A DNA stretch of 47,914 nucleotides, filler included, from Sphacelaria rigidula (taxonomy: Eukaryota), in NCBI GenBank assembly GCA_964200075.2. It is 2 parts of 2 records of this genome, joined end to end, with 100 filler letters (N's around TTAATTAATTAA, not from the genome) between each part and the next. Parts side by side here need not be neighbours in the genome. Positions count along the whole stretch, not along the records: positions 1 to 23,913 come from CAXNAA020000239.1; 1 more part is not named here. One strand, given 5' to 3'. This document shows, in pieces, positions 2,720-41,086 of the stretch. The notes beneath the pieces were generated by a model. That model saw only the letters and a program-made list of their open reading frames with translations, was not told where the DNA came from and ran no database searches. The stretch's first letter is position 1; each line of letters begins with the position of its first letter. Made by a program: the position numbers and the translations under genes.

Positions 2720-3704
2720 AACACGGGATCTTATGAGTTGGGGATGAATCTTATATTGGGGATGGGAAACTCGGAGAATGAAAATCTTTGTATCCACACC
2801 AAATCTTCGGGATATGGTTCCATTTCTTCACCTACCTGCTGATAGTTGTTGACAACTGATACACGCCATATAAATTTGGATTTCGATCACCGAAATGTTG
2901 AGGTCCTAGGTGAAAAGCCAGGTTTGGGGAATTCTGGGTGTCCAACCGGACGCCAAAATGGTTCCGAAATTGGTTTTTCACCTACAACCCCAACATTTCG
3001 GTGATCGAAATCCAACTTTTTGTGGCGAGTAGCAGTAGTTGTCAACAGTATCAGTACAGGAGTGGGCGGTCTAACTATTCATTTTATGGCATTTTGTGAT
3101 TTCTTCGTAATTGACGATTTTCTTGGGCTCTTCTCGCCTGCCACCGCGTATCACATCGGGGATCTGAAGATACTTGTATCCGCTCCACATTCCAAGAAAA
3201 TAAAATCATCTGTACTCGGTATTCAGTGACTTACGGCTGACCGGTCGTCGGGGGTCCTGCGACGTTTCAGCCTAGGTTCTAATTCTTCGGTATTTTCGGT
3301 CAATTGAGCCTGTCCCGAACACATTTTTGAAGAAATGTACAGTTTTTTTTTTCGCTTACTCATTGCACTAGAGCCGAAAACTGTGTTCCACGGTCAATAA
3401 TACCCTCTTGATGAACGGGTTATTTACTCGTTTCGCCCGATAACACCAGCCAGCACTGACTTGGGCACCGTGTTTTGAGGATAATCTGTTTATTGTACCA
3501 AAATCTCCCGACGCTAGCAATTTCCAGTTCTCGAAGAGTAGAACGCGAGCAAAACCCCCAGACCCCGCTGGATAGTTAGACCGCCCACTACTGTAGGTGA
3601 GAAATGGGACCATTCAAAGATTTCGTGTAGATACGAAGATTTTGATTCTCTGGGTTTCTCATCCCTAATAAAAGATCCATCCCCAATTTCTAAGATCCCA
3701 TGTT
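2720..3704. mobile_element. Second copy of the palindromic MITE, interrupted by a nested insertion
   Basis: Ends aacacgggatctta / taagatcccatgtt; homologous to 1633-2030. Confidence 0.8.
3057..3593. mobile_element. Tc1/mariner-like non-autonomous element with TA target-site duplication
   Basis: 22-bp TIR CAG(G/T)AGTGGGCGGTCTAACTAT; TA at 3055-56 and 3594-95. Confidence 0.85.
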
Positions 3705-4265
3705 AAGGCCTGTGCTCGTACCTGCAATCGGGTATATCTACAACGGCATACCCCAACCTCGAGTAGGGGTAGAGGAGGCTTACAGAGCTTACACACTGTC
3801 GGGTACAGGTTCAAAAGTCTTGAAGAAATTACAGAACTTATCGGGCACGGTATAGAAGCTTACAGGAAACCTTACCGGCAATTGGGTGTTTCTTCAAGAG
3901 CATACCCACGCTCCGGGTACGGGTGGACATTCCGCACAGACCTCACAGAACAATTGGGTAAGGGTATGGGAGGCTTACAAATTTCACAAAAACTGTCGGG
4001 GACGGTATGGAGGTTGCGCAGAAAACGCCGCAACCGGGTATCTCATCAAGAATATACCGATGCCCCCCGGTAACGGTAGGGGAGTCCTACAGGACCCACA
4101 AAACTATCGGGTAAGGGTAAAAAAGTTTTGGAGAGTTTACAGAAATGTCGGGTACCGGTATGAATGTCTCAAACACGTTACAAGACTGTTGGGTACGGTA
4201 AATACCCGGGGGGAAAAAATACCCCAGGTATTTAGAAAACCGTGCCCCACAGAACACAACCTTGG
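3705..4265. repeat. Element made of degenerate 35-40 bp ACAGAA..TCGGGTACGGTA subrepeats
   Basis: Recurrent cgggtacgg / ttacagaa motifs; imperfect ends aaggcctgtgctc / gaacacaacctt. Confidence 0.6.
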
Positions 4266-5521
4266 AAAATATATACAAGTGTCCCTCCCGAGCTCAGAGT
4301 CACTTGCGTCACATGCCACGGTAATGTCACGGATACTCCATTGCGGTCCCACCGCGTTGGGATAGTCCGGATCATTACAACCACCATCGCAGTTCCGGAT
4401 ACCCAATTGTACAAGGTGTCTCGATCATGTGTGACTTCAACCACAAACTGACTACAACTGCACTGGGAAGAAAGTGAGCTGAAAAAAACAATTAGTGGGC
4501 TCATGTAGCTACCAGCCCTTTATACATGGATGATTACACGACCACCCCAAGTGGAGGCCAACATCAAGTTACTGTTTATTCGGCTATCGGCAACCGACCG
4601 AATCATTAACTCGGCACTCTGCTGTACCGTTATATATACGAAACGCATCCAAGTACAATGCCAAAATGCCCCTTGATGAAGTTTACCGTAAACAGCGACC
4701 ACTTTGCGGGTTCACGTCAATACTACAATACCGGAGCTTCCAACATAACCATCAACGTCGCACACGAAGCGCTCAGACAAGGCATCAAAGAACCACGAAG
4801 TCACACCCACGGTTCGTGAAAAAGCAGCGGGTTCCGATTCACCTTCCGAATAATTTGGTTGTCAAGCATTAATAATCCAACACCTGTGAAAACGTCAAAT
4901 AAAAAAACGATGTAAACGTTAGACTTTCGTTTTCTTGCCGTTCCAACGGTGGCGATCGTGTGTGCCCGTTAGGAAAAGTACGTGTTCAAATACAGTCTCA
5001 TGTGTGGATTTCGTCACGGGCAAAGCAAGTACGCGTGGAATCGAAGACATAAATCTTGGGATGGCTGCAACTCTGAGCTTTCCAACGGGTATTACTGCCT
5101 TCCTTGTATAACCATATCACGTATTAAAAACTATCAGGAGGAAAGCACTACGAAGTAAAAGGACGGTAAAAAGTACATGCAGCACTCCCTTCACCGGAAC
5201 ATCACAAACCAACGGCAGCTACTGACAGCTGCACTTAATGATACAACTGCACATATGTGATCACAAGAAAAACAGAAGCCCAGTACGCTCGGTTATACTT
5301 ACAACTTCGTTCGGAGTATCGACATTCAAACGCAATAGCCGGTGAGATGCGACAAATATGTCTCGCATGATATTCATCGTGACAATTTATGATAAAACCG
5401 AGCATACAACTAGTATTGGAATATCAAGTATAACAGATCCGGGTGGTGGGTGAGTAGACAGTGCGACGACCACTATGCACACGTCCTCCCTCGCTCCACA
5501 CTTTGGCACTCCCATGTAAGC

Positions 5522-6586
5522 TCAGGCAATATTCGTTCCCGGAGCACCCCCTTCACCGTTCTGCTCACTGTCGTCACCTTGTGGGGCCTCCTCTCTCAAT
5601 CCCTCAGCCAACCCGTCCCCGTCGTCATCGTCCTCGACAGGATCGATTGCATTTTCTGCTGCCCTCAGTTCCTCATCCTTTCCAGTGAACCACACGGGCA
5701 GAAACGTCCTTATTTCTTTGGACGAAATGCACGGGATGAATGGAGGGATGATGTCGAAGTTGAGGTGGAGAAACATCAGCATCTCCACCCAGTACGTGTC
5801 GAGGCGGCTCCTTCTCCCCCTGAGGAGCTGCTCCACTCCGCTCAAGTCTCGCTCGACTTGTGCTGCTGAGGCCTGATTGCCGAACACTTGCTGAGCCACG
5901 TGGCGCAGCACGGGGAACGCGTGATTTCCGGTCTCCCGCCAGTACGTCAGCGCTTCATTCAGCTTCAAATCTGCCCTCGAAATGGACACAGCCCTGTAGC
6001 GTCCCAGTTCGATATCCACGGCGGTCTCGATATCATCTCGATGATCTTTCGTTTCATTGTCGTCATCGTCAGAGAGCATGTTGGCAAGTTCATCGTCCTC
6101 GTCCCTTACTCTGTCGACCTTTGTCGGGGGCATCTGACTCAGCTGTGTCTTATGAATCTTTGCGGGATGCGCAGCTATTTCTCGCTCTGCCTGCTCACGT
6201 GCGGCTTGGACCGCTATCGTGGTGATTTCCTTCCACGTGGCGTCTATCCTTGCCGTCACCTCCGCCTGAGCTGTCGGCGTAACCGACTGGAGACTGGAGA
6301 CAGCACTCGCGTCTATGGTCTCTAGCTTCATCCATTGGAGGACGTTGGCCTTGCTGTAAGAAGGTACGAGGGCGACTTGGGCATCTCTGTAGAAGGAGGG
6401 GAAAGATTGGTTGCCACTCCATACTCGCCCGTGATACCTCGAGACCATCGCCGAGCGAAGCGCCGCACGAGTCGCCCTTCCCGTGTCTGTCAACTGCGCG
6501 TGGGGTACCATCTGGAACCCCAGCTTAAAATTGTCCATATCCAAATTCAACTTCTCCTCACCGCACGAAGATGGTAGGCAAAACAC
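5522..6586 (-). CDS. hAT gene exon 6 (C-terminal dimerisation domain, catalytic Glu, acidic tail)
   Basis: Acceptor cag|GTG; 354-aa ORF with YW..FPVL..A..ASAAQVERDLS..RRSRL typical of Dimer_Tnp_hAT. Confidence 0.9.
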   Translation of the reverse strand: MFCLPSSCGEEKLNLDMDNFKLGFQMVPHAQLTDTGRATRAALRSAMVSRYHGRVWSGNQSFPSFYRDAQVALVPSYSKANVLQWMKLETIDASAVSSLQSVTPTAQAEVTARIDATWKEITTIAVQAAREQAEREIAAHPAKIHKTQLSQMPPTKVDRVRDEDDELANMLSDDDDNETKDHRDDIETAVDIELGRYRAVSISRADLKLNEALTYWRETGNHAFPVLRHVAQQVFGNQASAAQVERDLSGVEQLLRGRRSRLDTYWVEMLMFLHLNFDIIPPFIPCISSKEIRTFLPVWFTGKDEELRAAENAIDPVEDDDDGDGLAEGLREEAPQGDDSEQNGEGGAPGTNIA

Positions 6587-9500
6587 CTGTCAGCAATCGT
6601 CATTTTCAGTCAATGCAAACTCAGATTTCTGTAGTGAGGAGTGGAAAGATTGGTGAGTGGAAAGATTGGTTGCCACTCCACACTCGCACGTGATGCTTCG
6701 AGACCGTCGCCGAGCGAAGCGCCACACGAGTCGCCCTTCCCGCGTCTGGCAACTGCGCGTGGGGTACCATCTGGAACCCCAGCTTACAGTTACCAATATT
6801 CAAAATCAACTTCTCACCGAACAAAGGTGGTGGGCAAAACACATCACCAAGCGAAGCAATATACTAAGCACGAATGACAACGGAACTCGAAGGGGAAATG
6901 GTGACTTGCAACTGGTGAAACGGCGGCCGGGAGCAACTTTCCAGTGATGTACAGCTTGAAATGCCATGGTAAGCATTGGGGCACTGAAAATAGATGACGT
7001 ACAAATCGTTACAAACTGCACATCGAAAACAAACATGGCATCCATAATCGAATTACATTGTGGTTGCTGGAATGAATCCACCGCCTGTTCATTGGCTGGT
7101 CGCGCCCCTATATTTGTAACCAATACATGCGCGCGCTACAGACGCCTACGCTTCACGAACGCAATACAGTGCAATCTCAAGTTGAAAGCCCTCCTGGTGT
7201 GCGGACCTACCAAGCACACTACCCCAAACCGAGTCAATCTCACCTTCAGGTCTGCCTTGGGGTTGAGGGTTTTCACCAGCAAGGCGCCGAGCAGAGAGTG
7301 CAGCTTGCCACTCATGGGTTCTGAGTCAGACTGCCCATCACGCAGAAGCGCCGCGCATGGCTCCAGGAGAGAAAAAATCTCCCGTATCTCTTCGTGCCTC
7401 GTTTCGAGCGGGAATGCATCTCCGTTGTCCACGTACAGTTGCCGAAATGGATGCCAGCACCGGATGATGCACTTGATGGCCTTGCTCAGCGTCAGCCACC
7501 GATGTGGAGCGTGCTTGGTCGCCTTGACGACTGCTCTGAGCAGCTCAACCTGTCATGATGAGAATACATTGGCGAGCACGGGAGAAAGCGCTATGTGAGA
7601 AGATGATTGCGATACTGTAAAGATTATTCCCATGGCATTTTGGTTTCTTCGTCTAGCAGCTCAAAGCTCGGAGGAACCAACGCTCGAGTCAATATTTTAC
7701 GAGAATACTCTTGCTGCCCCCGCAACAAACACCATATCTTATTGGCGACATATGAAACACTGTAAACGGTGGGTGGGGAACGTTCTACGTGTCACATCCC
7801 ATCAAACAAGTCAAACCACCAAAGTCGCCGCATGTTGACCTTAATATCCCCAAGCTCCGCCTTCAAGGTGGCAGACTTGCTGACCACCTCAATGACCTGC
7901 ACCACCGCCTCGATCACGTCCCGGGCAGCCGGATTTTTCGAAGAGGCCGGTGTCGGGGAGGTGCCGAACCCATGCTCGCATCCCTTGCTGACCATGTGCG
8001 AGACACACCAGTCCCACGCTACCCCATCGTCGGCCTCACAGTCGACCCCGAACGCCTTGCCGTCGGAACCAGCGTCGGTTGTGCACGACGCAAAGTGCTC
8101 GACGCTCAGGCCAAACTCGGCGATGGACGCCTTGAAGATCTTGAATAGAATCTCAGAGGTCCTCTCGCCGAGATCGGAGGCCGGGCGATAGAGCTTCAGC
8201 TGATACGTCAACCCAGTACCGCGAGAGAACGACGCGCGGGCACGAGGATAAATGTCGGTAAAATGAAAAGGATGGAGACAAGATTATGGTGATAATAACA
8301 GCAGGTATCTTTCAGTGGGGGGAGATACCGTATGTACGGTCAACTAGCAATGGCATGACCAATTAGACACAACAGTGACGCTTGTTTTACTTTCATATCA
8401 AGCCTTCTAAAGGACATGCAATTCTTCATCGAGAGGGAAACCTCCTAGGAAAAATCGCTCGTTTTTACCAATGTGTTGGAATTTGAGAATTAGTCCCTTA
8501 CTGCAAGTGCTCAAGCATTTAGTCAGCACCGTTGCGTCCATACAAGCACATTCCACGGTGCTCTGAACATCGACCTCTTGTCTACAACTTCCATCTTACC
8601 GCGATCACAGCGTCACGGAGGTTGAAGCTGCTGTCAATCCAGAAGATGTGGATCTCAAGAAATCTCTTGCCAGAAACCTCGCACCGCCAGATGTCCATGC
8701 TGAAGTGGAGAATGCGCAGCAATGCAGCAGCCAGTTCTTTCCTCAGGCCCTCCATTATGACCTGTCCAGATTGCAGTTTTGTGTCCGGTTACACGCGATT
8801 CACTGCAAGTACGATACCCTTGGTTAACCATTTTGGAACTGTCTCCTTTCATTCCTGAGTCAAGCGCCTTATAGCCCACGAGAGCCCATGGATGCGGAAG
8901 GAGAAGCAAGAACGCACCTACCACCATATGGGCCGCACAATCAACTTAAGCACACCAATGCGGTTGGATTGGTTCCGTCTCATGATTGCATTCTCGAGAT
9001 GAATGCTGCTGAGATATAAGAACATTGTCAGTCGGATTGGCTCTAGTCTCCTAGTAACCATGGCCCTTCACACGGTCTCATGAACGGCAGAGAAATAGCA
9101 AAACCTCCTGCTACGTGTACTATATTTGGCAAGACGCATGGGAAAAATGACCACATGAGCAAGCGAACCTTTCTCGAAACGTCCAATCCGCACCAAGCAC
9201 GCCCTGTCGTACAAGTTTGATGTTTTCACATGAAAATCAACCGCGAAGGGCTGAGTTGTACTCTTCACACGCGCTACACCATCAGCTGAGTCCGCTAATC
9301 TTGGGGTCGGGCCGCCTATTTTTCCGTAACACAAAAGTGCACGCGCCGAAAGTGGTGTGCATGGTAGGACACATCCCCACGTGCTGCAAATAATATCTGT
9401 TTTGGACGGTGAGCACAGTGCTGCTCTTGAGGGCCACATATATTCCACAATGCACGCACATGCTGCAGGTTGTGTCGTGTACTGATCGTTCATGCAGAGA

Positions 9501-12500
9501 TGGACTTGTCATTGAGGGCATGCCCAATACGAACAAGTAAAATTCAAAAACTAGGACGAGTTTGTCATAGCACGTACTGATTTGGTCCAGCTCGTAGTGG
9601 AACTACGATCCTGGTGCTGAGCAAGCAGCGTACGACTTCTTCCTGCAGATGTTTCACAACGTGCTATTCGCCGATTATTGCAGGCGACTGCGCTTGGCTG
9701 CCGTACTGTTTAGGAGAGATAAAGCCACGCGGCAGGCCCTGCGTGCAACGTCAAGGCTGCAGCATTGACAGTCCGGTCCGAGAACTTGACACCAGAATCT
9801 CTGGCTCAAAAAAGACGACCGACTGCCAAACGGAACGCAGTAATTAGGTTCCCTGCATCTGTACCGTCCACCTGAAATTCGCTGCACGCTCTGATCGGTT
9901 ATACAGACAACCTCAGATTTTCGCGATCCTGGGTGACCAGATACGGCGTGGTGACGGTGTACTTTGGCAGCGATTTGGCGCAGATGTCAAGATAGCCGAA
10001 ATTTTGCTCGGTCACGCTGAAAATCAGTAGGTGGGCGACTGATATAAAGGTGAGGGTAGCGAAACTACGTTTGACAAAAAAAACTCACGCCGCTCAAAAC
10101 CGACGGCCAAAGCAATCACTGAGAACAATATTCCAAATGCAGGTCGAGTAGAGTATGTACTTTTGAGTACTCGTCGTGTACAAGCTCAAATATTTTACTC
10201 AAATAATGAGTAAGCAACCTGAGTGATACTCGAGTATAGACTATCACTTGGGGATGAACTCAATACTCTACTCAAATTTTGGGTAGATTGAGTATGGCCT
10301 CAAATATTCTACTCAAATTTTGGGTATTTTGAGTACAACCTCCAATACTCTACTCAAATATTGAGTAAGCACTCTCAGTACCACTCGGGTATGATGAGTA
10401 ACGATGACCGTCGGCGACTTCGTGACGTCACTTCACAGACTATGTTGAATACATGAGAGAACGATGACCATCAATGACATAAACGGCGTCACGTGACAGG
10501 CCACAATGAGTATGAGTGAATAATGGCTATCGAAAAATAAAAAAAAGCGTGCAGGTGAATGAACCTACCTGCAGCAGCTCACCTCCTGCCCCCCGCCATG
10601 GCAGTACATACTTTATGCCTCGCAACCCCTTCGATATCAGTTCAAGTATAGAGCGCTACTCATCATCATTGAGTAACCGAGTAGACGGGTAGTCGGGTAG
10701 GTATTGTATTATATGAGCAACTTTACTGGCCGCACATGTGACGTCTCCGTGGGAGAGTCAGCGGTGGAAACAGTGCAAGACGCGGAAACATCGGAACAGT
10801 CGCCAGAGGCAGGAACAGAAAAAGGCGCGACGGGGTCAGGAGTGATAGACCTGACCCCAAAAGAGGCTCCGGCGGTCCGCATTGTGGAGGCGGCCCATTT
10901 GGTTTCGATCCAAATGCTTTCTCGAATATACTTTATCCGAATGTTTGCTAACGTTTAATCGGAAATCAGCACTTATCATGGGTGGCCAACTCTGGAAATA
11001 TACCGTTACGTACTCTACCCGAGTTTCAGTATCTTGCGTATGAACTTGAATACTAAAGTAAAAGTTAAACCCAAGGTTTTGGTGCATCGGGTCTGGCCTC
11101 CGATACTCTACCCAACTTTCGGGTAGATTGGGTATGACCTCGAATACTCTGCTCAAATTTTGAGTAGATTGAGCATCACCTCAAATACTCTGCTCAAATT
11201 TTGAGTAGATTGAACTTGACCTCAAATACTCTACTCAATTTTTGGGTAAATGGAGCATGACCTCAGATACTCCACTCAAATTTTGACTAGATCGAGTACG
11301 ACCTCAAATACATCATTCAAATTTTGATTGAGCACTCGAAGCAACACTTGAGTATAGGGTATCACCTGGGTATGATGTCAGTACTCTGCTCAAACTTGAA
11401 GATCACGGGTCCAGCAAATGAAAAAAATAAAAAAGAAGTTATGAGCATTTGAAATTTCAGCAAGAACAAGATAATGACGAAAGTCCAAGAAAAATAGGAG
11501 AATCTGCGGCTGGAATCGCGAAGTATCAGTCCCTCGGGCGCAGAACGTCTTCCTTAAATTTCAGCTCAAGACTCGTCGAATTGGGCCGTGCGTTTCACAT
11601 TTTCCGTGATGCTGCTGCACCCCTATAAATCAACTGATGGGAGACTCCAATTATGAAGGTCATGAGTTCGAATCCCGACACATCCTCTTTTTTTTTTCGT
11701 TCGTCGTTTAGCTTACACATTGATGAGGTACATTTTTTTTCATTTTTTTTTCTCATTCAGCGGCGGTGCGGTGTGTCACCAGGTTGGTCTACACTTCACA
11801 GTGATATGCTTACATCGGGTTCATTCGGGAAACTGGGGAAGCTGTGGTGTGAGCAAGGTTTAGCAGCTTTCAAGCTGGCCCAGCTCGTACTCAAATTTTG
11901 GATAGATTGAGTACGGCCTCAAATGCTCTACTCAAAACATGAGTAGATCGACTACGACCTCCAATACTCTACTCAAATATGTCGGGAGAGTGGTACCACT
12001 TGACCGCGAGCCAGGATGATGCAAGGATAAAACACTCGTGGAGTGGCTGATTTTTAGCGATACCTGGAGACCAAGCTACACCCTATTGGCGCGCGCGGGG
12101 AGGGGGGGGGGAGGGGTAGTTGGAAAATTCCAGACCACCTTACCGATTGTCGATGTAGTGTACATTCACTCCGGTGGTTAATGCCGCTGCTTGTAAAAGC
12201 CTACAAGGCGGTGTCATTTTGTGCTCAAGTACCAATATTTGTTCAAGGCAAAAAAAGTCGGGAGAGGGCGGGGCCGCATGTCCCTCGACCGAACAAAAAG
12301 CCACCCCTTCGTGTTCGGTTCTCAAATGGTGTACGTGAACTGATGCTCACACGCTCACGAGAAAGCACATTGGAGGGAGGCAGGATACATAACTAGAGAC
12401 CCCGACTGCACGATGAGATAAGAAGCTGCACAACCGCGTAATAACTTCGTGGCACAGCGGAAGCTGTGAGACAAGGACCGGATAAATTGAAGAACCACAC

Positions 12501-15500
12501 GAGAATGTGTAATAATAAAGCAAACATGATATTACAATACATATTCAGCGGTACCGCGGTACATCATAATCCATATGGGCTGGTCCGTGAAAGGAACATC
12601 GATTATAGTCGGACAAAGCGTTTTTCACGCACACGAAGCAGATCAAGGCAAACAAATATGTAGATGCTACTTGGTATGTAGAACAAAGTGGCCATACTTC
12701 CTTCTCAGTCCAAGGCCGTGATGAGAAGGCAGGGGCGTGCGAAATAGAGGGTCTCGAAGTGTACAGCATCCAGCATGTACGAAATCTTCGAGATACCGAT
12801 CGCGACGACGTTGTGTCTGTTATCGTAGATGCGGGGTATATTCTTGAACTTGGTATGCTCTTCGAGCAGTAGTGTACACCCAGCATGCACAAAACCGCGG
12901 TGAGGGCGAGGGGTGATGCGCAGCCGACCAAAATATTGATGAGACATGAGAAGAAGAGGTGAGAGGAGTTGAGTCACTGCAAGTATCTCTCATAACTGGA
13001 GGAAACGGTTCTCTCGCACCAGCGCAACTTCATGCCAGCGCGACCTATTTGCAGGTGGGGTATGCAAGTTAAAATGCGCACGTCGCGAACGCCTCCAGAA
13101 CCAAATTTACGACAAAGCCGATTTCAACTACTCTACACACCAAACAACCGTCGCCCTCCACATCAGTCCACAGCAGGACAGTAACGAAAGGATCTTGTCG
13201 CAGGGTAGGAGACAACACACGTCGTCGGCGACGAGCTTTCTGATTGACACTGATGAACCAACAGTCGTACTGTGTTCTTGGCCAGCCAAGCACCGCGCAT
13301 GCTCGATTGTATGGATGCAATGAAGACACCGCTGTATATGCAGCTGCTGCTTGCTATCGAGCATACCGCAATACCATACCGTTGCATTGTTGTACAAGAC
13401 ACCACACTTTCTGCACACCGTTGTGCAGGCTATTTAGACGGCACCGCGGGTAGTAGTAGTTTTCCGTAGTATACCACTTGTCGACTGTAAAGAGCACTAC
13501 ATGCCTCGTGCTACTGCGGCCTGCTGTACAGACATACGTGCAGAGTGTACATACAGTGTGTACAGCAGACAACAGACAAAAGTACACAGCGGTGTGATTT
13601 CACAACCTCACCCCCTCCCTTGCGTGCATACGGCCGTGTATCGTATAGTACTCAGTGTACCGCAGTATCCATCGACACGTCATCTGCACGAATACGCTGT
13701 TTTCTCCGTGCATAGGCTGCGGCGGGTGTGAATGGTCATCATCACGTGATCACACACATGCATGACAGGATTACATTCGAACACTCGAGTGTTGGGCCAG
13801 TTGTACATGCGCCAGCAACCATCAACGTTCTTCTGTGGGAAATTAAGCAGTGTGCTCCAAGTAAAAAGAACTCATTCTATGATTCCTGTTGACATCGAGC
13901 AGAGAAGTAATCGTCGCCCACGCTTGTGGTACCCTGCTCCAAGACAAACTCTGTTCGGTGCTACTGTCCTGCTGTGGGCTGCTGTGACGTACGACTGTTG
14001 TTTCGTGTATGCAGTGTTTCAACTTAATTTAGGATTTGGCTCTGAAGGCGTTCACGACCTGCACGCCCTTATTTGCATACTCCACCGGCAAATAGGTCAC
14101 GCCATACATGGCCTACAATTTCAAAGCATCTTCCAGGTAGCTTGTGAAATACACGATAACATCTTCACACGGATTATGCTGACTAAAGTCCGGGGCCGTC
14201 AAACGTTGTGCCAGGTTAGTTTCGCTCGTTTCAACAGTTTTCTCCAGTCCCCGACGATCGAACATCCAACATTCTCGGAATAACTTCATGTTTTCTCCCA
14301 TTTCTCCGTATGTTTGTTGTAATGAGCGACGTGTTACCCGCGCACATTTCCCTGAGGGCATCCTGGGTATTACTTCCTCTGCTCGGTTTCACCGGTTATT
14401 TGGGGTTGTGTTGCCATTATCGGAACAACCTTACGTTACACGTCATGGCCAAGAGTTGGACGAAATTCCACACACGCGTTCTTGTGGGCAAGCCCGAGGT
14501 CATCAGTGTTTGACTGTTCAAAGGTACGAGAGAATTAAGCAATGTATACAGGCTACGAGCTACTTGAACTAACCGAAGGTCTCAAATTCTCGGGCCTTTT
14601 TTGCGTTTGCTCAATTTTTCGCGCCATTTTCGGGCGTCGAGACACGAAAATTACCGCACGTATGTCCAGCCCAAGGTCACAAGTGTCTGAGTATCTAGTT
14701 TCGTGTGATTTCTACGGGATCCTCGGTCCCCTCTCGAACCTCCTGTCGAATCGCCGGGGACCCCGTGAAATCGTTGGAGATCATTACTCGAGTACGTTTG
14801 GGCACGGGTGATCCCTGGCTCGACTTCATATGCACGTGTCAGTATTTTTGTCGCCAAACGCTGAAAAATGACGGGATAAATCGCCGTCGATTACAATTTA
14901 CAGACGGAATATGCAATACGCGGCGGGTCTGGGGGGAGGCAGGAATACCTATTTCTGGTTAACCTACACTCACCGCTTTAGTAGCGTGGAACACTTCCAC
15001 GATGACATGCTTAACACGCTGTCGGTCGATCTGTTTCCACTGCCCGCTGGCTAGTTCCATCAGATCGCAAAACTCGCGATCTTCCGACAAAGAGAAGGGC
15101 TGCATCGTCTTGATGACCACTCGAACATACTGCAACTCCAGTGCCCTAGTTTTTGCAAGGGAATTGTAAACGGAGATCAGGACGAGGAGATCGCCGATCG
15201 ATCAGGAAGTTGTGCTATGAACACTTTTTTGGGTCCCTCGACATTTCAGGCACGAACATACGAGCTGGGCAAGCAGTACATCCCGCATTTGCGTCTACAA
15301 TCATAACTCGTCAAGTTTATCAAATCAGCTCGACTCGAGCATATCGATGTGAACTGCAGACCAACCTGGAAATGCACGGCACCGCCGCTGGTCGATTGGA
15401 GAAGTTTTGGCGATGATGTTATTGNNNNNNNNNNTGTTTTGAGTACCTGTAATTTTTTGTGTTGTTGTGTGATAGCGTGTCTGTTTACGTTTTGTTTCAC

Positions 15501-18500
15501 GAAATGCGGTGGGAACGCGGTAGGCAATTGCGCCGCACAGGCACGCGTTGACTCGACACGAGCAGGCAAAAGCACACTGGTACGAGTAGTGCGGCGAGAT
15601 GGCATCAAGGTCGTCAACAGCTCCATAATGGGAAAGAACCTCCCAGCCAACGGCCATGTACCACCGTAAGAGGGAGAAGTACTACCTAAAACCGCGCTAT
15701 ACACCCCCCAGATGCAAGGCGCTATGCCAGATTATGCGCATAACAAAAATGGTCGTGTCGGGATTCGAACTCGTGACCTCTGTAATAAGAGACGGTTGTA
15801 CCACTTTGACCACCGGGTGCCACGCGAAAAATTGGGTGCTGTGGGTAATTCGAAGAGTTAGGCGCCGAAATTTCGACACGACACTTTCATCATCACTACA
15901 CACAACATTCCTGGACGTGCATCCGTATTTCTCTTCTTTTTTCGCGAAGTTACAGCATTTTTCTAGTCTTTGCAGAGATTTCAAATCGCTCCAACTTCCT
16001 GTATTTGTTTTTGTTTTTTCCAATACACCTCGAGAAATGTTGTGAGTAGTGATAATCAAAATATTGTGTCAAAATTTCAGCGCCCAACTATTCGAAAAAC
16101 CCACAGCATCGCCACAATATGTTCAAAAATCACCGTCGGCTGGCCAAGCCTGTACAGGTTTCTTTTTCAAAGTACAAACACTATTAAATATATAAGTTTC
16201 TTTATTTGAACACTGTTTGCTATTGTTGAAAGATATCAAACGCCTGTTGCCCTATCACTGTACGTCAACATACGTACGTCACTTGCTACAGATTCGGGGG
16301 ACCTCGATATTCCACGGATCTGCGCTCAAGTTCGTGTCAAACAGTCCTCGAATCGTGACAAACGAATCCAAGCTTCCCCGATTTGGACCAAATTGGTGTC
16401 CATACAATGCGTTTCCAGAGATGAGGTCCCCCAATCTCCGTACAGATGCGTTTTTGTGACTGCCTTGCAAAACGATCTCAAAAACTGAATTGCAATACTT
16501 TTTCTCACACCATGCCCAACAGTGGAGAGCGACCACGTCGTGGGTACACAAATTTTGACTTAACGGTCGACAAGGGAAAGGGACTGCTGAACCCCTCTCG
16601 CGATAGAAAATAAAGGCAAGCACCGCAGAAGGAAGGTGGGTGACTAAAAGCAAATAAAAAAGAAAAAGCTCCTGTGTTGACCTTCCTCTTGTGTGACCCA
16701 AGCGGGTGCGCCCACATATACCGACCGGTGTACATCTGCGCCCAGAATAGAAGGAACGACAACACACAACACACAACACGTGTACGAGTACGAGCTGGGC
16801 CAGCCTAGAAACGGATTCAAGCTCTAAAAGCAATGTCTCATCGACACAGACGAGTTGGGCCGTGATCTGCATGTCGTATTAGTCTTCCAATCAAGGGGAA
16901 GGTGCCCATCTGCTCAAAAATCTGTGCCAATATTTTCTGATTGATTAAACCCCATGTTTAGTAATTCCTATAACTTGCGGAGATAGCGTCCGCACTAAAA
17001 TCCATATGAAACCTCGATCGATACATTCAGCGGATGATGACGATTTTTGGTGTGGACCTTCCCTGGAGCACGGGGAGACGATAGATACCCTCACCTTCAC
17101 CTAATTCGTCATCTATCTCGAAATGTGGCGCACATAAGTTTACACTAAAATCGATATATTACGGGCAAAGGCACTAGATGCCCTAAATCTGGATATCGCG
17201 TCTCAGTTTTTGAGAGTTTTCCCATGAAATTTGGTGTGGAAGGAACTGCTAGTGCATAATGGCATAAAATAAAACAGCTTGTTACCTTTTCTTCATTTTT
17301 TCTTCACTTTAGTCGTGTTTTTAGTGGAGTTTTGAGGAGGTATGAACATTGCTCTGTGAGCTTTTTTCAATTTTCCAGCCCAATTTTTAAAATTTCAAAC
17401 TTACTAACATGGAGAACCACGAAGCTGTGCCGATTAAAACAAAAAGTGGTCTTCATTTTTTTTCTTCATGGAAGTTAGGGCGTTCTCGTGAAGAAATCGT
17501 TCTCACTATACTAGAACGCCCTAAACCAGTGAAAAAAATGAAAAAAATGAAAAAAATCAACCTGACCAACTTTGTTTTGTTGATTATCCCTTAGAGAGCG
17601 CCCACACAAAATTTCAATACACGAAAACCAAACGTGGGCCGGTGAGTGGCCTGCTAAATACTGTTCCGAATTTTACCGAACCTGCTTATAAAAGGTCGAT
17701 GCTGTGGCCAATATTTGGAGTTGGAGCGTAAAATTTGGTATGGACAATGCACAAGGCATGAAAAAAATTGCGCCGGCACCAAAAGCTTTCCTTTATGAGT
17801 CAGGGGCAACAACCAATTTTCATTATCAGTAAAATGCCCGGAACTCATGAAAAAAAAACTTTTGGAACCGACGTAACTTTTTTCCATGCCCCATGCGTTG
17901 TCCATACCAATTTTTACGCTCCAACTCTAAATATTGGCCGGAGCACGGGCCTGCAATCTCAAAATCCGCCTCTAGGCTGGCCCAGCTCGTATGAGTATCC
18001 AGATTCAGTGCACCAAGTGCCTCTGCTCGAAATATATTGATTACAGCATAGAACCCAACGTGCGCCATATCTCGGAACAGATGACGAATTACGTAGGCCA
18101 AAGTGGAGGTGTCGATCGTTTCCCCCTGCTCCAGGGAGTGTGTCCCCACCATAAATCGTCATTATCCGCTGTATATATCGTTTGGTGTGCCATTAGAATT
18201 TAGAATGGACGCTATCTCCGTACGGTGTAGGAATTACTAGACATGGGATTTCATCAACGAGAAAAAAATGGTGCTCGCAGTCGCAGGCAGGGTAATATCC
18301 AAGACAACACCGGTCTCACAGGCGGTACTGTCTATCGGTATATGGGCTATGGGTTATAATAGTGTACCCAGCGTTTGCTTTTGATTGTTGCCGTGCCCCC
18401 GATATGGTCGCGGTGGCCGGGGTTGGTGTTGCAGTCTCCATTTGCGCTCAGCTTGCTGCTGTATCCTGCAAGACCTCGGATATGGGGCATGATTCAAGAT

Positions 18501-20865
18501 AGCTCAATCGTCGTTGTTGTCTATTGTTTCATGTTGCTCGGGTGGAACATGACCCGAGAAAAGGAGTGTATCCGCTAAATTGTTGCTGGCTCCCTTTCGC
18601 AGGCTGTCGTGCTGTTGTTCTGGATGGCTCGCGTTTATCGGTGCCGTACAGAAATGAAAAGCACGGTGCCAACTGGCCATCGGGCGAATCTTATTCATCT
18701 TGATGCGATACAGATACAGTCAGTACTATTACAGAAAGTTGTTGAGGTACAACGCTGGAGACAACCAAGGACTCTACCACGGTTAGGACGAATCATCACG
18801 GGTTCGAATCACCAAATACACGATTTCTTCGGCCTGAGTGCCCAAAAGGGTGAAAAAAGTTTACCGCCGGTCCAAAAAAAGGGGTATCCACGCGACTTTT
18901 GCGCCATTCCACGTTACTGGGCTGCGTGTACCTGGTTTGCAACGCTGAAAACAAAGCCTGGGGATTGATTCGTACGATTCGAGTGAATTACGCAAAAAAC
19001 AAGTAACTTCCAGACGAATCATTCATTTGTCCGACCCTTGGACTCTACACACGGGATATCATATCAGACAGCTAACGCAACACTCGTACGATTGTGCATC
19101 TCTCTTGCGTGTGCGATTCCGTGTGCTAGAACACCGCGTCTTTTCCAAGGTATACAACATGTACCCTTCGCTTGATTCATGACTCACTTGATGCTCTCAT
19201 CAAAAATATTATCGATCGATGCTGACTGCACGTAGTTTTTTCAGCTCTCCTCCTGCTACTGCCCTGGGCTGTAGCAGGCTGACGGAGGGAAATGAAGCCC
19301 AGACCAGGCCTAGACAAACGGTGCAATCTTGTTGACCTTTCTGCGGCCGACAGGGTTAATGTACAGGTAGCGCACGTTTATCCAGCGCAAATCCCAGTAC
19401 GAGTCATGGAAAACAATGAAACAGTCGCTGATTTCAGTTCACGTATTTCATAACGACCCGTGCCCATGAACTCGGGGCCAAATATTATTTCAAGGACAAC
19501 GATGCGGTAGCAATTGCAGATATCGACTACGCTTGACAAAGGAAAATATTCTCGTGTCACCCCCCAGCTAGACCCCGGTGAGCGGGACAAGAGACACGTT
19601 CCAAACGTATGGCTGACCAAAAGGGGTAGATTCGGCATATACAGACTGTAAATACAAAAACGTATTTGCAGACCCAAGTCCGAACGGTATAGCACCCTTG
19701 ATAGTCGACAAACACAGACAAAATGAACCGTGATATATTGGGTTCGATATTCATGCAAGTGATCCCCGCACATGAGCATCAGTGATGGGTCTGACTCGAG
19801 AGCAATATGGGTCACGGAGAAATCAGTACCACCGAGTCCGAGTTGCACAAGTCGGACTCGCACTCGTTCGACGAGTCGAGAATTTGCCCGTATTTTTTTT
19901 CTGTTCTCAAGTATTTTGGTGCGGAGGGGTATAGAACGTGAACATGATGACTGCATCTGGACATTTCGATAGTAAAATCAACTAGTCAGTACAGTCAGCA
20001 CCACGCACAACAACAGTGTGCTGAAGAAAGGTACATCAACCTGGCACGTGGAGTTGTCACCTCACCTGGCTATGGACCCTCCGAAGGCCTCGTTTGCCGC
20101 CATGTTCACGCTAGAAACGCCATTCTTGACGCTTTGGTGTTCTCCGTCTTCGTCCTGAGTACGCCGTCCGATGAGGCTACGAGGCCTCTTGAGGTGCTTC
20201 TTGATGTTCGCTGTCTTCGCGTTGAAGAGACCGTTCTCGGCGCTTTCCTTCTTGACGCCCTGTTTTTGGTGACCCTGTGCGACGGCGCCCTGTTTTTGGT
20301 AACCCTGTGAGATGGCGCCGTGTTTTTGGTAACCCTGTCCGATGAGGTTATGAGCTCTCTTCAGGTGCTTATTGATGTTGCTGTTGTGGCCATTTCTGAT
20401 GGTGATGCTGGTACCCCTCTCCCTACATTCCGCGCTAGCCTTGCACCACCACTTCGCTTCGCACCTGTCTTCATTCTTGATGTCAAACGATCCCCACTGG
20501 TGAAGGAATGACTTTTGGGCGAGGCTCGAGCTACGGCAGCTGTAGCCTGGGGCTGGAAAGTGATGAAGGACAGCCTGAAGAACGTCATCCGGGACTTGCA
20601 CGATGGAATGTGTATTGCAGTCCAGGGTTTGCGGCAGTGTCAGATCGCCACGGCGGCCGCTGCTGTCTACATGTTCATCAACCGTTGCCGTCGAGTATAC
20701 CGTGGCTGGAGGTGCTGCGCTCGCAGGTTCCGGCGCTGCACCAGCGGAACTTGCATGTGCAGCCGAGACCGCGTTGTCCGCCGGAACGTCTGAGCTGCTT
20801 GCCGATGCTGCACCGCCGCCGTCACTCATGAAGCCGTCCCGATCCGGCAGCGCCGAGTCCTGCAT
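5522..20865 (-). CDS. Spliced hAT-family transposase / ZBED-like protein, about 954 aa: join(complement(20066..20865,14974..15145,8600..8761,7840..8199,7244..7549,5522..6586))
   Basis: Six exons joined by GT..AG introns with matching phases (2,0,0,0,0); 2865 nt with no internal stop. Motifs occur in hAT order: BED finger (WWCKASAEC..NINKHLKRAH), MQPFSLSEDREF, SMDIW (D1), CTTDAGSD (D2), WCVSH (CxxH), HRW, and YWRE..FPVLRHVAQQVFGNQASAAQVERDLS (E; hAT dimerisation domain). A 10-N gap lies in intron 1. Confidence 0.8.
6660..6845 (-). repeat. Degenerate tandem duplicate of the 5' part of hAT exon 6
   Basis: Highly similar to 6401-6587; translates FCPPPLFGEKL..KLGFQMVPHAQL; the acceptor reads gat|gtg rather than cag|gtg. 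Confidence 0.85.
7244..7549 (-). CDS. hAT gene exon 5 (KHAPHRW)
   Basis: Acceptor cag|GTT, donor AAG|GTGAGA; 102 codons. Confidence 0.85.
7840..8199 (-). CDS. hAT gene exon 4 (TTDAGSD, CVSH)
   Basis: Acceptor cag|CTG, donor AAG|GTCAAC (weak); 120 codons inside ORF 7792..8211. Confidence 0.85.
8600..8761 (-). CDS. hAT gene exon 3 (first catalytic Asp, LHFSMDIW)
   Basis: Acceptor cag|GTC, donor GCG|GTAAGA; 54 codons, VIMEGL...RDAVIA. Confidence 0.85.
10140..11982. repeat. Arrays of a 41-bp unit (ctcaaatactctactcaaattttgagtagattgagtatgac) at 10140-10400, 11095-11395 and 11888-11982
   Basis: About six tandem units at 11098-11335, each containing the palindrome CTACTCAAA/TTTGAGTAG. Confidence 0.8.
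11397..11888 (+). mobile_element. Non-autonomous element with AGATCACGG 5' end, internal tRNA-like cassette and GCTGGCCCAGCTCGT 3' end (possibly Helitron-like)
   Basis: Interrupts the 41-bp array; both termini are shared with 16789-16872. Confidence 0.55.
14974..15145 (-). CDS. hAT gene exon 2 (ALELQYVRVVIKTMQPFSLSEDREFCDLMELASGQWKQIDRQRVKHVIVEVFHATKA)
   Basis: Acceptor ctag|G, donor GCG|GTGAGT. Resembles the hAT 'LPFSxVEDxEF' region. Not in the ORF track. Confidence 0.8.
15425..15434. other. Assembly gap (10 N) in intron 1 of the hAT gene
   Basis: Run of n. Confidence 1.
16500..16779 (+). mobile_element. 5'-truncated SINE (copy 2) with (ACACA)n-type tail
   Basis: Alignable to 2280-2556; tail gacaacacacaacacacaacac. 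Confidence 0.8.
16950..18248. mobile_element. Foldback element with about 250-bp inverted arms and an internal insertion
   Basis: ccatgtttagtaattccta..cggagatagcgtcc versus ggacgctatctccg..taggaattactagacatgg; a second inverted repeat inside at 17700-17945. Confidence 0.75.
20066..20865 (-). CDS. hAT gene exon 1 (Ala/Ser-rich N-terminus plus BED zinc finger)
   Basis: ORF 20062..20865 with W-W-C-x5-C...N-x-x-K-H-L-x3-H; ends at a phase-2 donor AG|GTGAGG. Confidence 0.75.
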
Positions 20866-21630
20866 TATGGCTGTTCTTGTACAGGGTACTAACTGCGGTG
20901 TGTAACACTCAGAAGCACGACCTACCGAGTACAGGGGTGTTACCCTGTTAACTACGTTATAGTGCTGCTGTGTAGTGGAGTGTACCCCTTTGTACTGCCA
21001 ACCTGTAATGTTTTCACTGCCTTCCTGAAGTTATGATCAGGGTCCGTAGAAAAAAACTGTTCATAAAACCACCATGGCGTGAGCGAGCGCTGAATGGACT
21101 TTACCACACACAAAATCTGCAGGACTTCACGTGGTGAAGTGTCTGTGCTGTACCATACCGTTTCACAGGGTAACGATGATTGCGCAGTATCAGCTGGAGT
21201 ACCCCAGTACTCCCGACGGAACTCACTATTGTAACTCCGGCAGCCACAGCCACAGTACCTCGGAATGTTGAGGTGCGCCGACCAGTCGGTACTCCTGGTA
21301 CCCCCAGTTTTTCAGCAGGGTGTACCCCAAGCTACGCTGGGTACTAGAGGTTTCCGGGAGTTGGTACCCCGCGTGCCTTGAAATATACTGTATAAAGTAC
21401 TCGGAACAGACCGAGTATTGTCGGAGGGGTACACTTTTGTTAATATATTAGTCATGATGGTCAATTTTGATCATCGTATGGTACGTTACCCCACTCCTCC
21501 TAAAAAAAAAGGAGCTGAACGAATTTGTGTGCACGAAGTAGGTACATAACTAAGCAACGAACCACCACACAATCAATATATTTACCTATTTTACTACGCG
21601 CGTTTGTCGTACGTGCATGCAGCACTGGTG

Positions 21631-22080
21631 ACCGGTCGGGGTAAACCGGCCTGCACATATTCTATTTTGTAGTTTAGGGTACGGAGTATATTTTCTCCAC
21701 GGGGTAAACCAGCCTAAATATTTTCTATTTTGTACTTTAGGGTGCGGGGAGTATATTCATTTTCTCTAATCGGTACCGCTCGGGGTGCAGCGTTTATTGT
21801 GGAGTAAAAGTCATTGTAATGAAAAAATGATACGCGGCTGTCCTTCGAGGGGGTGCCTGCCGGGTAAACTCGACGTGGAATATAATTCCGGGATGGTGGG
21901 GGGGTGTGATTACTTTTTCTTTAAATGGAAATGAGTATTATATACACGCAAAAAGGAACCATGCGTGTCTTGATTTGAGATACCCCCTTACATGTTGTGT
22001 AGAGATAAGAAGATAAATGTGCGGGGAAAGGGCGTGACCGGCGTTATAAACCCCGCGAGTATAATACACCCCGACCTAGT
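21631..22080. mobile_element. Probable MITE with an internal ~60-bp tandem duplication
   Basis: Ends accggtcggggta / taca-ccccgacctagt; tandem repeat at 21637-21757. Confidence 0.5.
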
Positions 22081-22867
22081 AGGGGTAAGAGCACGGACAG
22101 GACTGTCACAAACAGTGTTTTGTCGCCAGGTTGTTGATATTTGGTTCTCGATTTCAATTTATTTTTGGCTAATTATTTTTCAATCATATATTTATTGGCT
22201 TCACGTATACGTGTAGATTGAGTGGGAGACAATGGACTCTACGATGGTCTGAATATATTTGATAATGGTCGCCTGCAGCATAGGATCTTCGAAGACGAAA
22301 AATCAATCATGCGTGTACCCAGGTCCGACCCGTCATTTGCAAAACTCAAAATATTAACAACAATAAACGCGAGGTCATATTTTTGTTACAGCCTACTACT
22401 GCTACTGCGAACACAGCAGGTAGACTGATTGAAGCAAGCTGCGGCATAACACGGTCGCCAGCATGCAGGCGTGGCTGCGGCACCATATATATACACTGTC
22501 ACCACTGCATAGGAAGGACTCGTCGAGGCTCACGAACCCACAGCACAAACCTCCACTGTCGTCGCCATCACCAGCAACAACAGCTCCATCTTCGGTCATC
22601 ACTGCTTTACTTCTGTCGTGGGTCTTTTCTTGTGTGCGATGCTTTGTGCTTTCGTACTTCTTTTGCGCTCTAGCGCGCGCAACGGGTGTTCATCTGAAAG
22701 ACTGAGGGATCATGTTCGGGGGTACGGTACTTCATTCAAAAATAAAAATAAAAAACTAGAAAAAACACGACATCGAATAATTAGATACAAAAAAAAAGAG
22801 AGACGGAATAGAAAAACAAAAATCTGAGTTCGTTACGATGGAGATCCAAACCTGTGATGGTAAATGC

Positions 22868-23913: not shown

Positions 23914-24013
23914 NNNNNNNNNNNNNNNNNNNNNNNNNNNNNNNNNNNNNNNNNNNNTTAATTAATTAANNNNNNNNNNNNNNNNNNNNNNNNNNNNNNN
24001 NNNNNNNNNNNNN
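23914..24013. other. Scaffold gap containing an artificial TTAATTAATTAA linker
   Basis: 44 N + ttaattaattaa + 44 N = 100 bp. Confidence 0.95.
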
Positions 24014-25617: not shown

Positions 25618-25689
25618 GCGCCCGTTTAGTTCAAGTGATACAGGAGACTCCAGTTGAGGAGGTCACGATTTCGAATCCCGACGGACGCC
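25618..25689 (+). ncRNA. tRNA-like pseudo-cassette inside a repeat (related copies at 11616-11685 + and 15751-15822 -)
   Basis: 72 nt; acceptor stem GCGCCCG/CGGACGC, A-box-like TAGTTCAAGTG, B-box TTCGAATCCC; the other arms are degenerate. Confidence 0.5.
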
Positions 25690-26507
25690 TGTTTTTGTTC
25701 CGTCGGTAAGGTCATACGTTATGCAGTACAATTTTTTTCATTTTTTTCTTAATTTTTGTCAAGTAACCAAAAGACGCTATTTTTGTGTATTTTTGTGCCG
25801 CGTGTGCTATACCACAGGTGAGGGTATGTATCACCTACGGGTGATACATTTTTCAACTTCGACGGTTGCTATTGAGAGCCGTTTCGCACTGTCGAACAAT
25901 CCCGCTGACCCGAAGATCTCGAGAAGATCTTCTCAATGATACAGACATCCGGGGGCGCTACCGGCACATTTTATGAGGAAAGCGAGTTACAACAAATGAT
26001 CTCGCGGAGACGTTTTGCACCTTCGCCGATGGCAGCCCCCATCCCCCACGACCGCACACACTTGCGTTCACGTTTGATGCGTTTGGCGATGTTGGACTTG
26101 TGTCGGCTACCGGCAATTCAGCGCGTTCGTCTACCAGACTAAGTCAACATGATTTCACGCTTCAAACGTTTGGTTTCCAACTGCACGCGCCGAACGTCCT
26201 CTCCGTGAAGAATACATCTGTTGTGCGAGGTCGGATCAGACAGGCCTCCAAGCTTATTGTCGCCTTCGCATATCGCAACGATTTTATCAACGGCTTGAAT
26301 ATGTGATATCCGAGCTACTTGTCTCTGTTTTTAGGCCATGCTTCTCACTGAACACGTCAAAATCGTACTCCCTGTGCGAAAAGTCCCTGCTGAAACAATC
26401 AACACTACAGTACTCATTCACCACCCTCGGATAGTCTGCACGATTTGATTAAGCTAGCCCTGCCCCCAACCTCATCCTTCCCCTGCCGTGCCATCACCCC
26501 ACCCCAG

Positions 26508-39200: not shown

Positions 39201-40129
39201 GCCACCGTTCGAGGAGTGGACGGACGTGTCGCAGGTTTGCGACTTCATCGTCTGCAGGTGACTTCATCGTCTGGAGTAGTGATTGCAAGTGCGCGCAGTT
39301 GTGGTTGCCTGTAACTCCTTTCTTGAAGTTCGTTGACGTGAACACCAAAATGACATAACTGCACGTTCACACCGGTATCTACATCCCCATGCATATATAT
39401 ATATATATTTAACTGTTACTCCGTATCCGTCGAAAATGGTCGACTGTATATGTAGCATATCAAAGATTTTAGCCAATTTGCGCTCGTTGTCGGGGCGGTG
39501 ACAAATACATGTTGATGTGAATCATGAAGAATCAAGGTACTGAAAAGAGCAAGGTCCAGGAAAATTGTGTGATTCGGAGTGCGGTGAAGGACAACTGGTT
39601 AGATTGATATGTTGTTTCTCGTTTTCCCATGGCTTTCTTTACGAATGGGATGTAGAACTAAAACGTTAGCCGAATCATTTCACTGCACTTGTGATTACAT
39701 GCCGTGAAGCATTCTAAAAATTACCAAATGCTCCCGTGACTTCCCTTGAGCGCCCTTCCAGGTACCATGCAACGCCTGGCATCGTTCCCACGGTCTCTCA
39801 AACTCTCGTTTCGTTGGATAAAGATGATTTTTTTCTGTAGAAAACTCGTGAGGAATTACTTCTGTGGTCGCTAGTTTGAATATCTTTCACACCCTGGACA
39901 ATACAATACGTAATATATATATATATATTGCCCGCTCAATATATCAACGCGTCGGGTGGTCAATATATATTGGGCGAGCAATATGATGACATGAGAGAGG
40001 GTCAGTATATATTGTGCCATCAATATATCAAGGCTCGCGACATGCAATACATATCGACCGAACAATATATCACGACACGCGCCACATCAATATATTGGCC
40101 GAGTAATGTGTTGGTGCGAGAAGGCACCA

Positions 40130-40164
<35 letters not shown>

Positions 40165-41054
40165 GTAATATATTTCCTGCCACCCGAGGTCAATATATAT
40201 TGACGATTCAATACACTCGACACCCGAAGCGCCGATACATATTGCCGCCCCAATATGTCGTGCGTCAATGCGTCCAATATATGTTGGGCGGACAATACAC
40301 GAGGGAACCGACGGCCACAATACATACTGGTGCAACAAAATATATTGATTATCAACATATAGATTGGAAAGTGTATTGGAATTAGTATGGTGGGCAGTTC
40401 TTCGTTCGCGGGCGCCATTCAAAGACGTATTTTACATGCCGAAAATGCTCAATGTATTCCTCCGCAAGCGTGTTCAATATATATTGGCTCCACAATGGCT
40501 ATCCGAACAGCGTGCACAATATATATTGGAAAAACAATACTTCTGCATGGTTTGCGTTCAATATATATTATGTTGAAAATATGCTACGCATCGCCTCGAC
40601 TCAATATATATGGACACTTCAATACATACACGGCCGGCATGCACAATATATATTGAATGTTTTGTTCCCGGAGCAACTGCATGTCCAATATATATTGACA
40701 TACATTACTTCATGATCATGACACGAGCAACATATGTTGTTGCTTCAATGTCTCCGAGGATTTTTCAACACAATATATATTGAAAGGACAATATTTGCGC
40801 TGGCTCCAATACAAAGTATTGGTATCATATTGGAGTATGCTATATTGTCCAGGGTATAAGCAACACAGCCCCGGTGACCACAGGGGTCCCAAAAAGCGCG
40901 TATCGACCCGTGTTTTCTGTCGTCGTGATGTTTAGCCAAGATGTTTATATTGCATGCTGGAAAGGGGATGGGCGGCCCCGCACCGGTGGCCAGATAGATA
41001 TCAGGAGGCATATATACCGGGTCGCCTCTTCTGTCACCATATGTTCTAACCAGT

Positions 41055-41086
<32 letters not shown>

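Follow-up and report, generated by a model that had tools for sequence, protein, structure and literature searches.

A hAT transposase gene in Sphacelaria rigidula

The window analysed here is a stretch of 47,914 nucleotides from the brown alga Sphacelaria rigidula (NCBI GenBank assembly GCA_964200075.2), composed of two parts joined through 100 filler letters, with positions 1 to 23,913 derived from record CAXNAA020000239.1. Its minus strand carries a gene that is genuine, transcribed and spliced correctly and encodes a complete transposase of the hAT type; the locus is apparently fixed and single-copy and lacks recognisable transposon ends. The list of open reading frames (ORFs) on this strand contains six stop-free pieces between 20865 and 5522. 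When every GT and AG within these pieces was listed with its phase, a single phase-compatible set of strong sites emerged, joining the pieces into a stop-free coding frame of 2865 nt (954 codons plus stop) that comprises six exons spread over 15.3 kb. All five introns are of the GT..AG type and measure, from the first to the fifth, 4920, 6212, 400, 290 and 657 nt. An earlier note, made from the sequence alone, had proposed a six-exon, phase-matched model of 954 residues; the present analysis reproduces it to the base, and all five of its joints are seen in RNA contigs. A strong alternative acceptor for exon 6 at 6386 (phase 2) was discarded, as the RNA contigs use 6586. The features of the gene, all on the minus strand and in the order of transcription, are as follows.

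20866..21235: 5' untranslated region (UTR); RNA contigs stop at 21183, 21210 and 21235, start approximate
20066..20865: exon 1, coding part, residues 1-266 plus 2 nt; joint 15144/20065 in three of three RNA runs
20350..20445: BED-like C2H2 finger in exon 1, C141-x5-C147-x19-H167-x4-H172 (from codon positions and relatives)
20256..20342: in-frame tandem repeat within exon 1, 30 nt x 2.9 (tandem-repeat scan)
15146..20065: intron 1, GT..AG, nearly all high-copy repeats, with a 10-N gap at 15425-15434
14974..15145: exon 2 (splice phases and RNA joints)
8762..14973: intron 2, GT..AG, 6212 nt, with 41-nt arrays at 10262-10367 and 11103-11327
8600..8761: exon 3, with the first catalytic Asp, D347, at codon 8693-8695 (splice phases, RNA, profile)
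7840..8199: exon 4, with D420 at 8074-8076 and C443/H446 at 7996-8007 (splice phases, RNA, profile)
7244..7549: exon 5, with R515/W516 at 7496-7501 (splice phases, RNA, profile)
6652..6842: copy B, within intron 5, decaying duplicate of exon 6, nt 1-191 (repeat scan)
5522..6586: exon 6, coding part and stop codon, with E845 at 5852-5854 (Pfam PF05699, RNA)
3912..5521: 3' UTR, about 1.4-1.6 kb, entering a high-copy repeat below 4135, end approximate

The first ATG in frame that follows the stop at 21031-21033 is taken as the start of translation, which gives a 5' UTR of about 320-370 nt; RNA depth drops to 0-1 past 21228. The tandem repeat in exon 1 encodes 10-residue repeats of the QGYQK type, and the RNA contigs carry it with no other letters. 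Exon 6 encodes the last part of the insertion domain, an acidic linker and the hAT dimerisation domain, together with E845.

Transcription and splicing

Contigs of three RNA-like runs (X6, X7 and X8, three samples) and of one DNA run (X1) were placed on positions 3000-22500 of the window at 95% identity. The runs X6-X9 come from one study and bear the label 'RNA?' as a guess; they hold 0.56-0.64 of the sampled words of 5522-8800, a region in which the exonic share is 0.58, and we infer their RNA origin from the spliced contigs. All five joints, which appear as skips of 4920, 6212, 400, 290 and 657 nt bounded by CT..AC on the plus strand, occur at exact coordinates in three of the three RNA-like runs and in none of the contigs of the DNA run placed on the same positions, which answers the call of the earlier note for RNA reads across the five predicted junctions. 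A single contig holds all five joints in X7 (4793 nt) and again in X8 (4808 nt), running from about 21183-21210 through the six exons to about 3912-3924, and in X6 the same exons are split over two contigs. The pieces of the RNA contigs differ from the window by no letters and no gaps. The transcript therefore extends over at least 17.3 kb, as read from contigs, a material that yields neither expression level nor exact transcript ends.

The depth of RNA words is 72-93 on exon-bearing contigs versus 0-1 on the unique intron stretches (8859-9509, 12114-12764 and 13416-14717), showing that the gene is transcribed and fully spliced. Faint RNA contigs lie over intron 4 (7550-7839), one in X6 at 7522-7867 with a depth of 5.6 and one in X7 at 7632-7838 with a depth of 3.1; these depths of 3-6 suggest slight unspliced RNA or intron retention. 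The transcript connects exon 2 to exon 1, so that the sequences on either side of the 10-N gap (15425-15434) belong to one locus; the earlier note had named a joining of unrelated loci there as a refutation of its model. As intron 1 contains this gap, its length of 4920 nt is nominal.

Protein domains and catalytic motifs

Pfam was run on the six exon pieces separately, and the joined protein of 954 residues was analysed by alignment and with a hidden Markov model (HMM) profile. In the separate pieces Pfam recognised the dimerisation domain only (PF05699, Dimer_Tnp_hAT; residues 212-277 of the exon 6 piece, E 4.1e-6, 26.9 bits versus a cut-off of 21.4), and the catalytic core had no match of its own. 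The spliced model aligns as a single high-scoring segment pair both with the relative P0151 (model residues 309-915, 36% identity) and with P0101 (residues 90-898), and it matches a profile of 13 relatives as one HMM domain spanning residues 254-923 (E 2.9e-171). Only exon 6 had served as the query for these 13 relatives, so that the unbroken match across the junctions of exons 2-5 supports the model independently.

The 13-relative profile in turn matches the structures of Hermes transposase in three blocks (E about 2e-26), which contain the first Asp (IDLWT), the second Asp (TDRG), CSSH, RW and the Glu (SERTF); the link to Hermes thus runs at the sequence level through a common profile. At the Hermes-equivalent profile positions the window protein retains D347 (SMDIW), D420 (TTDAGSD), C443/H446, R515/W516 and E845 (VERD), so that each of the motifs that the earlier note had read by eye (both Asp residues, CxxH, RW and the Glu) is present and falls at a Hermes position. 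The CxxH and RW columns are invariant in the 13 relatives. Overall, the protein retains 25 of 28 conserved family columns (10/11 invariant and 15/17 nearly invariant), the exceptions being R to C, L to I, and F to L in ERDF. From these alignments, the predicted product is a full DDE transposase of the hAT superfamily (Ac/Hermes type), with the catalytic triad in an RNase-H-like core that an insertion domain splits, CxxH, RW and the dimerisation domain.

The N-terminal finger is assigned with more reserve. Its four residues are conserved in the relatives P0101, P0012 and P0146, and at the corresponding site P0101 shows a zf-BED match below threshold (E 0.4). In the ESM Atlas, the named cluster ranked first for the finger is a BED-finger cluster (score 0.96), of whose members 10% carry zf-BED. 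Pfam zf-BED gave no match on the finger region even at E<=10, and a PDB sequence search with this region returned chance matches only (E 0.36 and 0.51). Where the earlier note had named a BED finger and proposed an HMM check for zf-BED and Dimer_Tnp_hAT, the conserved CX5C...HX4H motif and the dimerisation domain above its cut-off are upheld and the zf-BED assignment is not; the predicted finger is accordingly called BED-like, not BED. Compared with Hermes (PDB 2BW3, 4D1Q, 6DWW and 8EDG), the window protein is alike in the blocks of Asp, Asp, CxxH, RW and Glu matched through the profile and in the C-terminal hAT dimerisation domain. It is unlike Hermes and hAT elements generally in having a CX5C...HX4H finger without a Pfam zf-BED match, five introns over 15.3 kb, and no element ends found here.

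Relatives of the transposase

Exon 6 was compared with 1.84 billion representative proteins, and the full scan returned 289 relatives at E<=1e-3 and nine at E<=1e-30, most of them exon-sized fragments; an exon 6 search for longer proteins yielded P0151 only, scored among 8000 candidates, in a database from which the full-length product of the window gene is itself absent. The closest relative, P0001, is a protein of 333 residues from one contig that is 89% identical to exon 6 without gaps and starts just within this exon, as would be expected of a genomic ORF. It retains the Phe of ERDF, which is changed to Leu in the window protein. Several relatives begin where exon 6 does, at the motif Q|VF.LP, and intron 5 therefore seems old in the family. 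One relative, P0153, has 34 member sequences, and the databases searched contain no large set of near-identical proteins. The search with exon 1 returned only P0155, a 267-residue genomic ORF with 100% identity. A metagenome scan gave 78 pattern matches but just one locus, L001, which lies on a 1113-nt contig and is 50% identical over residues 207-339 of the exon 6 piece.

Element ends and copy number

Inverted ends flanked by an 8-bp target-site duplication (TSD) were sought outside the coding region, with terminal inverted repeats (TIRs) of at least 11-12 nt and few mismatches and a TSD with at most one mismatch. For 12-nt TIRs with up to two mismatches, three matches were obtained versus a mean of 0.6 in 20 shuffled sequences; two of them fall inside a dispersed repeat, and the third matches over no more than 12 bp. 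Requiring 10/11 TIR matches left one match versus 0.4 in shuffles. A YAG start is typical of hAT ends, and with this start there were three matches versus 3.95 in shuffles. None of the matches in these scans, the best candidate 859/21721 included, is longer than 12 bp. The flank search that the earlier note had suggested thus bears out its own failure to find a TIR pair or an 8-bp TSD: no such pair rises above chance in the sequence scanned, in which the upstream flank is contiguous to 23913 only. Ten inverted-repeat pairs in the window were screened as possible non-autonomous elements of the hAT type, with TSDs of 2-10 bp considered; no pair is flanked by an 8-bp TSD, and no substrate for the enzyme was identified among them.

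The earlier note had also reckoned with many near-identical dispersed copies, as in an ordinary active element. In the DNA run X1 all contigs bearing exons have a depth of 65-69, equal to that of the flank at 21228-22500 and of the unique parts of the introns, which is the single-copy level for copies of at least 95% identity. No variant letters were seen in the exons in contigs placed at 95% identity. The agreement of exon depth with unique sequence, together with the lack of variant letters, argues against several copies at or above this identity. Within the window, the 191-nt duplicate of exon 6 in intron 5 is the only other sequence that encodes hAT protein.

Constraint on the coding sequence

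This duplicate, copy B, provides a comparison between coding and non-coding states of one sequence. It begins exactly at the first base of exon 6, without the acceptor context of the used copy (6396-6586), to which it is 90% identical over 161 nt (repeat D4) and 72% identical in amino acids over 64 residues. Copy B and the exonic copy differ at 19 codons (17 nonsynonymous and two synonymous differences), and copy B has lost one codon. P0001 covers a stretch in which the two copies have 11 amino-acid differences, and at 10 of these it agrees with the exonic copy; deeper relatives side with the exonic copy at conserved sites. As the exonic copy held its state while copy B decayed, the comparison shows constraint on the coding sequence, of a kind that would fit selection at the level of the host or of the transposon alike and does not separate them.

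Known hAT systems

hAT transposases, brown-algal hAT elements and the domestication of hAT genes are all known already, the ZBED genes being domesticated hAT genes. In Ectocarpus, four hAT families with 128 copies, 13 of them intact, are described in an excerpt of one study, which also reports that introns are abundant in brown-algal transposase genes and that such intron-rich genes are hard to detect (PMC12477816). These families resemble the window gene in occurring in brown algae, in their low copy number and in the intron richness of their transposase genes; by comparison with them, as known here from the description in that excerpt, the window gene stands out as one for which no ends were found and whose depth is single-copy. 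Because intron-rich transposase genes and low-copy hAT families are documented there, introns alone are no argument for host recruitment.

DAYSLEEPER and the SLEEPER genes, and Kat1 of Kluyveromyces lactis, are likewise derived from transposases, expressed, without ends of their own, and in possession of a dimerisation domain and a DNA-binding finger, the counterpart of which in the window gene is the predicted BED-like finger; Kat1 has, in addition, kept its catalytic residues (PMC3499209 and PMC4763223, each in excerpt). The ZBED genes share these general traits. For these genes orthologues, selection or a phenotype are documented, whereas the window gene is known from its sequence and from RNA contigs. 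Literature searches for a domesticated transposase in brown algae returned nothing specific and one general review.

Origin and possible function

We see about an even chance that this is a stationary, single-copy locus without ends, the frame of which has been kept by selection and the protein of which still binds DNA, oligomerises and can cut. Such a gene would descend from an autonomous element that lost its ends and became stationary, took many repeat insertions into introns 1 and 2, and owes its open frame to selection rather than to youth. The protein would bind DNA through the BED-like finger at its N-terminus, oligomerise through the hAT domain at its C-terminus, and cleave DNA at cognate ends by the hairpin mechanism of hAT enzymes. 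Two uses of this activity appear about equally likely: service to the host, that is, true domestication as in Kat1 or the ZBED and SLEEPER genes, or provision of transposase in trans for non-autonomous relatives. A bolder version seems to us unlikely: in it, a still-catalytic hAT transposase, encoded by a single-copy gene without ends and retained by the host in brown algae, would cut or rearrange the DNA of the host much as Kat1 or the PiggyMac systems of ciliates do, perhaps together with a catalytically dead P0001. The earlier note had proposed domestication from long residence and an intact frame. An intact, expressed gene with its motifs kept, without ends above chance and at single-copy depth, agrees with that proposal as far as it goes; host recruitment itself does not follow from these results, and the gene is a reasonable but unproven candidate for a host-kept transposase.

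Several observations weigh against a stationary, host-kept gene, and some of them speak for a low-copy autonomous hAT transposon that is still mobile or was immobilised very recently, an alternative to which we give a tentative but substantial probability. Its short ends would then be unrecognised or lie past the contiguous sequence, and selection acting in the lineage of the transposon would have kept its frame open, with P0001 as a sister copy in decay. Intact catalytic motifs, all of which are present here, are typical of an active transposon, and many domesticated hAT genes have lost them. P0001 itself carries Ala at the position of the catalytic Glu, and the exon 1 search produced no partner at the 89% level; on these two grounds P0001 looks as much like a decaying paralogue from a small transposon family as like an orthologue, and it may be either the orthologue of a closely related organism or an incomplete paralogue that is catalytically dead. 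No orthologue was found in the protein searches, in which the next relatives after P0001 have 45% identity or less, some with many members (P0153, above), and a protein of the brown alga Pylaiella littoralis, the single named relative, has 39%. The identity of this named relative fits a brown-algal origin of the gene. Short or degenerate ends would escape the scans, with only about 2.7 kb of upstream flank contiguous (to 23913); the copy count covers copies of at least 95% identity, with older ones outside its scope, and the depth of contigs gauges copy number poorly. The RNA support comes from one study alone. The intron repeats have many relatives at 95% identity or above, so that residence at the locus need not be long. 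The low-copy hAT families and intron-rich transposase genes of Ectocarpus also count in favour of this alternative (PMC12477816, in excerpt). Against mobility stand the lack of a TIR and TSD pair above chance, exon DNA depth equal to that of unique sequence without variant letters, and the absence of a swarm of near-identical proteins in the databases searched. The size of the transcription unit counts in the same direction, with a transcript of at least 17.3 kb, two introns of which contain nested repeats of high copy number amounting to some 8 kb. Usual hAT elements are far smaller than this span.

It is quite improbable, in our estimation, that the gene is instead a dead relic that lost its ends recently, keeps an open frame by chance and shows residual transcription with no function for host or transposon. 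The high identity of the intron repeats to their relatives would allow such a short time at the locus, and by our estimate about 1% of neutral divergence leaves a frame of 2.9 kb open in roughly a quarter of cases. However, the retention of 25 of 28 conserved family columns and of all catalytic residues, together with the fate of copy B, a neutral 191-nt copy now short of one codon and altered at 17 residues beside an exonic copy still in the state common to P0001 and deeper relatives, makes a dead relic less likely, and clean splicing in three of three RNA runs likewise speaks against it.

What the analysis yields at present is a gene annotation with good support, in which a reading of splice phases made without tools recovered a true 15-kb gene, and a case of a full hAT transposase expressed from a locus without obvious means to move, which bears on the annotation of transposons in brown algae. 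If host recruitment were true, it would represent transposase domestication with an intact catalytic centre in brown algae, an independently multicellular lineage, and the question would become which DNA the enzyme cuts. Syntenic orthologues under purifying selection would raise the interest of the locus.

Introns, repeats and flanks

The nested high-copy repeats of introns 1 and 2, roughly 8 kb in total, show X1 DNA depths between 1e3 and 5.7e5 across bins within 9510-12113 and 14718-19925, with the highest value, 5.7e5, in the 16020-16670 bin. About half of intron 2 is high-copy and about half is at single-copy depth. The earlier note had described SINEs (short interspersed elements), foldbacks and arrays in introns 1 and 2. 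Repeat scans detected the repeats, arrays and foldbacks, and the SINE label is left without confirmation by ARAGORN (no tRNA genes in the whole window) and Rfam (no matches in the whole window). Repeats at 11640-11700, 15737-15806 and 25633-25703 carry a GTTCGAATCCCGAC-type motif, at which both tools are likewise silent; this motif resembles a tRNA B box, and B-box-like motifs of repeats D12, I14 and I15 are the sole basis of the SINE label.

Dispersed repeats (families D5, D7 and D13-D15) are common to the downstream flank, intron 1 and the piece past the spacer, as in the pairs 1287-1499/24676-24887 and 2285-2527/16511-16749, which have 78-85% identity. The spacer itself, at 23914-24013, reads N44-TTAATTAATTAA-N44, which we take to be an artificial six-frame-stop spacer between separately assembled pieces. 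Its position means that only about 2.7 kb upstream of the transcript, to 23913, is surely contiguous, and the sequence to the right of 24013 may not physically adjoin the gene. Past the spacer lies the longest other open frame of the window (43336-44757, plus strand, 473 codons from stop to stop), whose linkage to the gene is uncertain; Pfam gave no match for it at E<=0.01, and none for any of 16 long ORFs of the window outside the gene. On the same side, an AT-rich region at 39900-41500 contains arrays of 42-43 nt (families D2, D3 and D6) around a palindromic CAATATATATTG motif, together with (TA)n runs.

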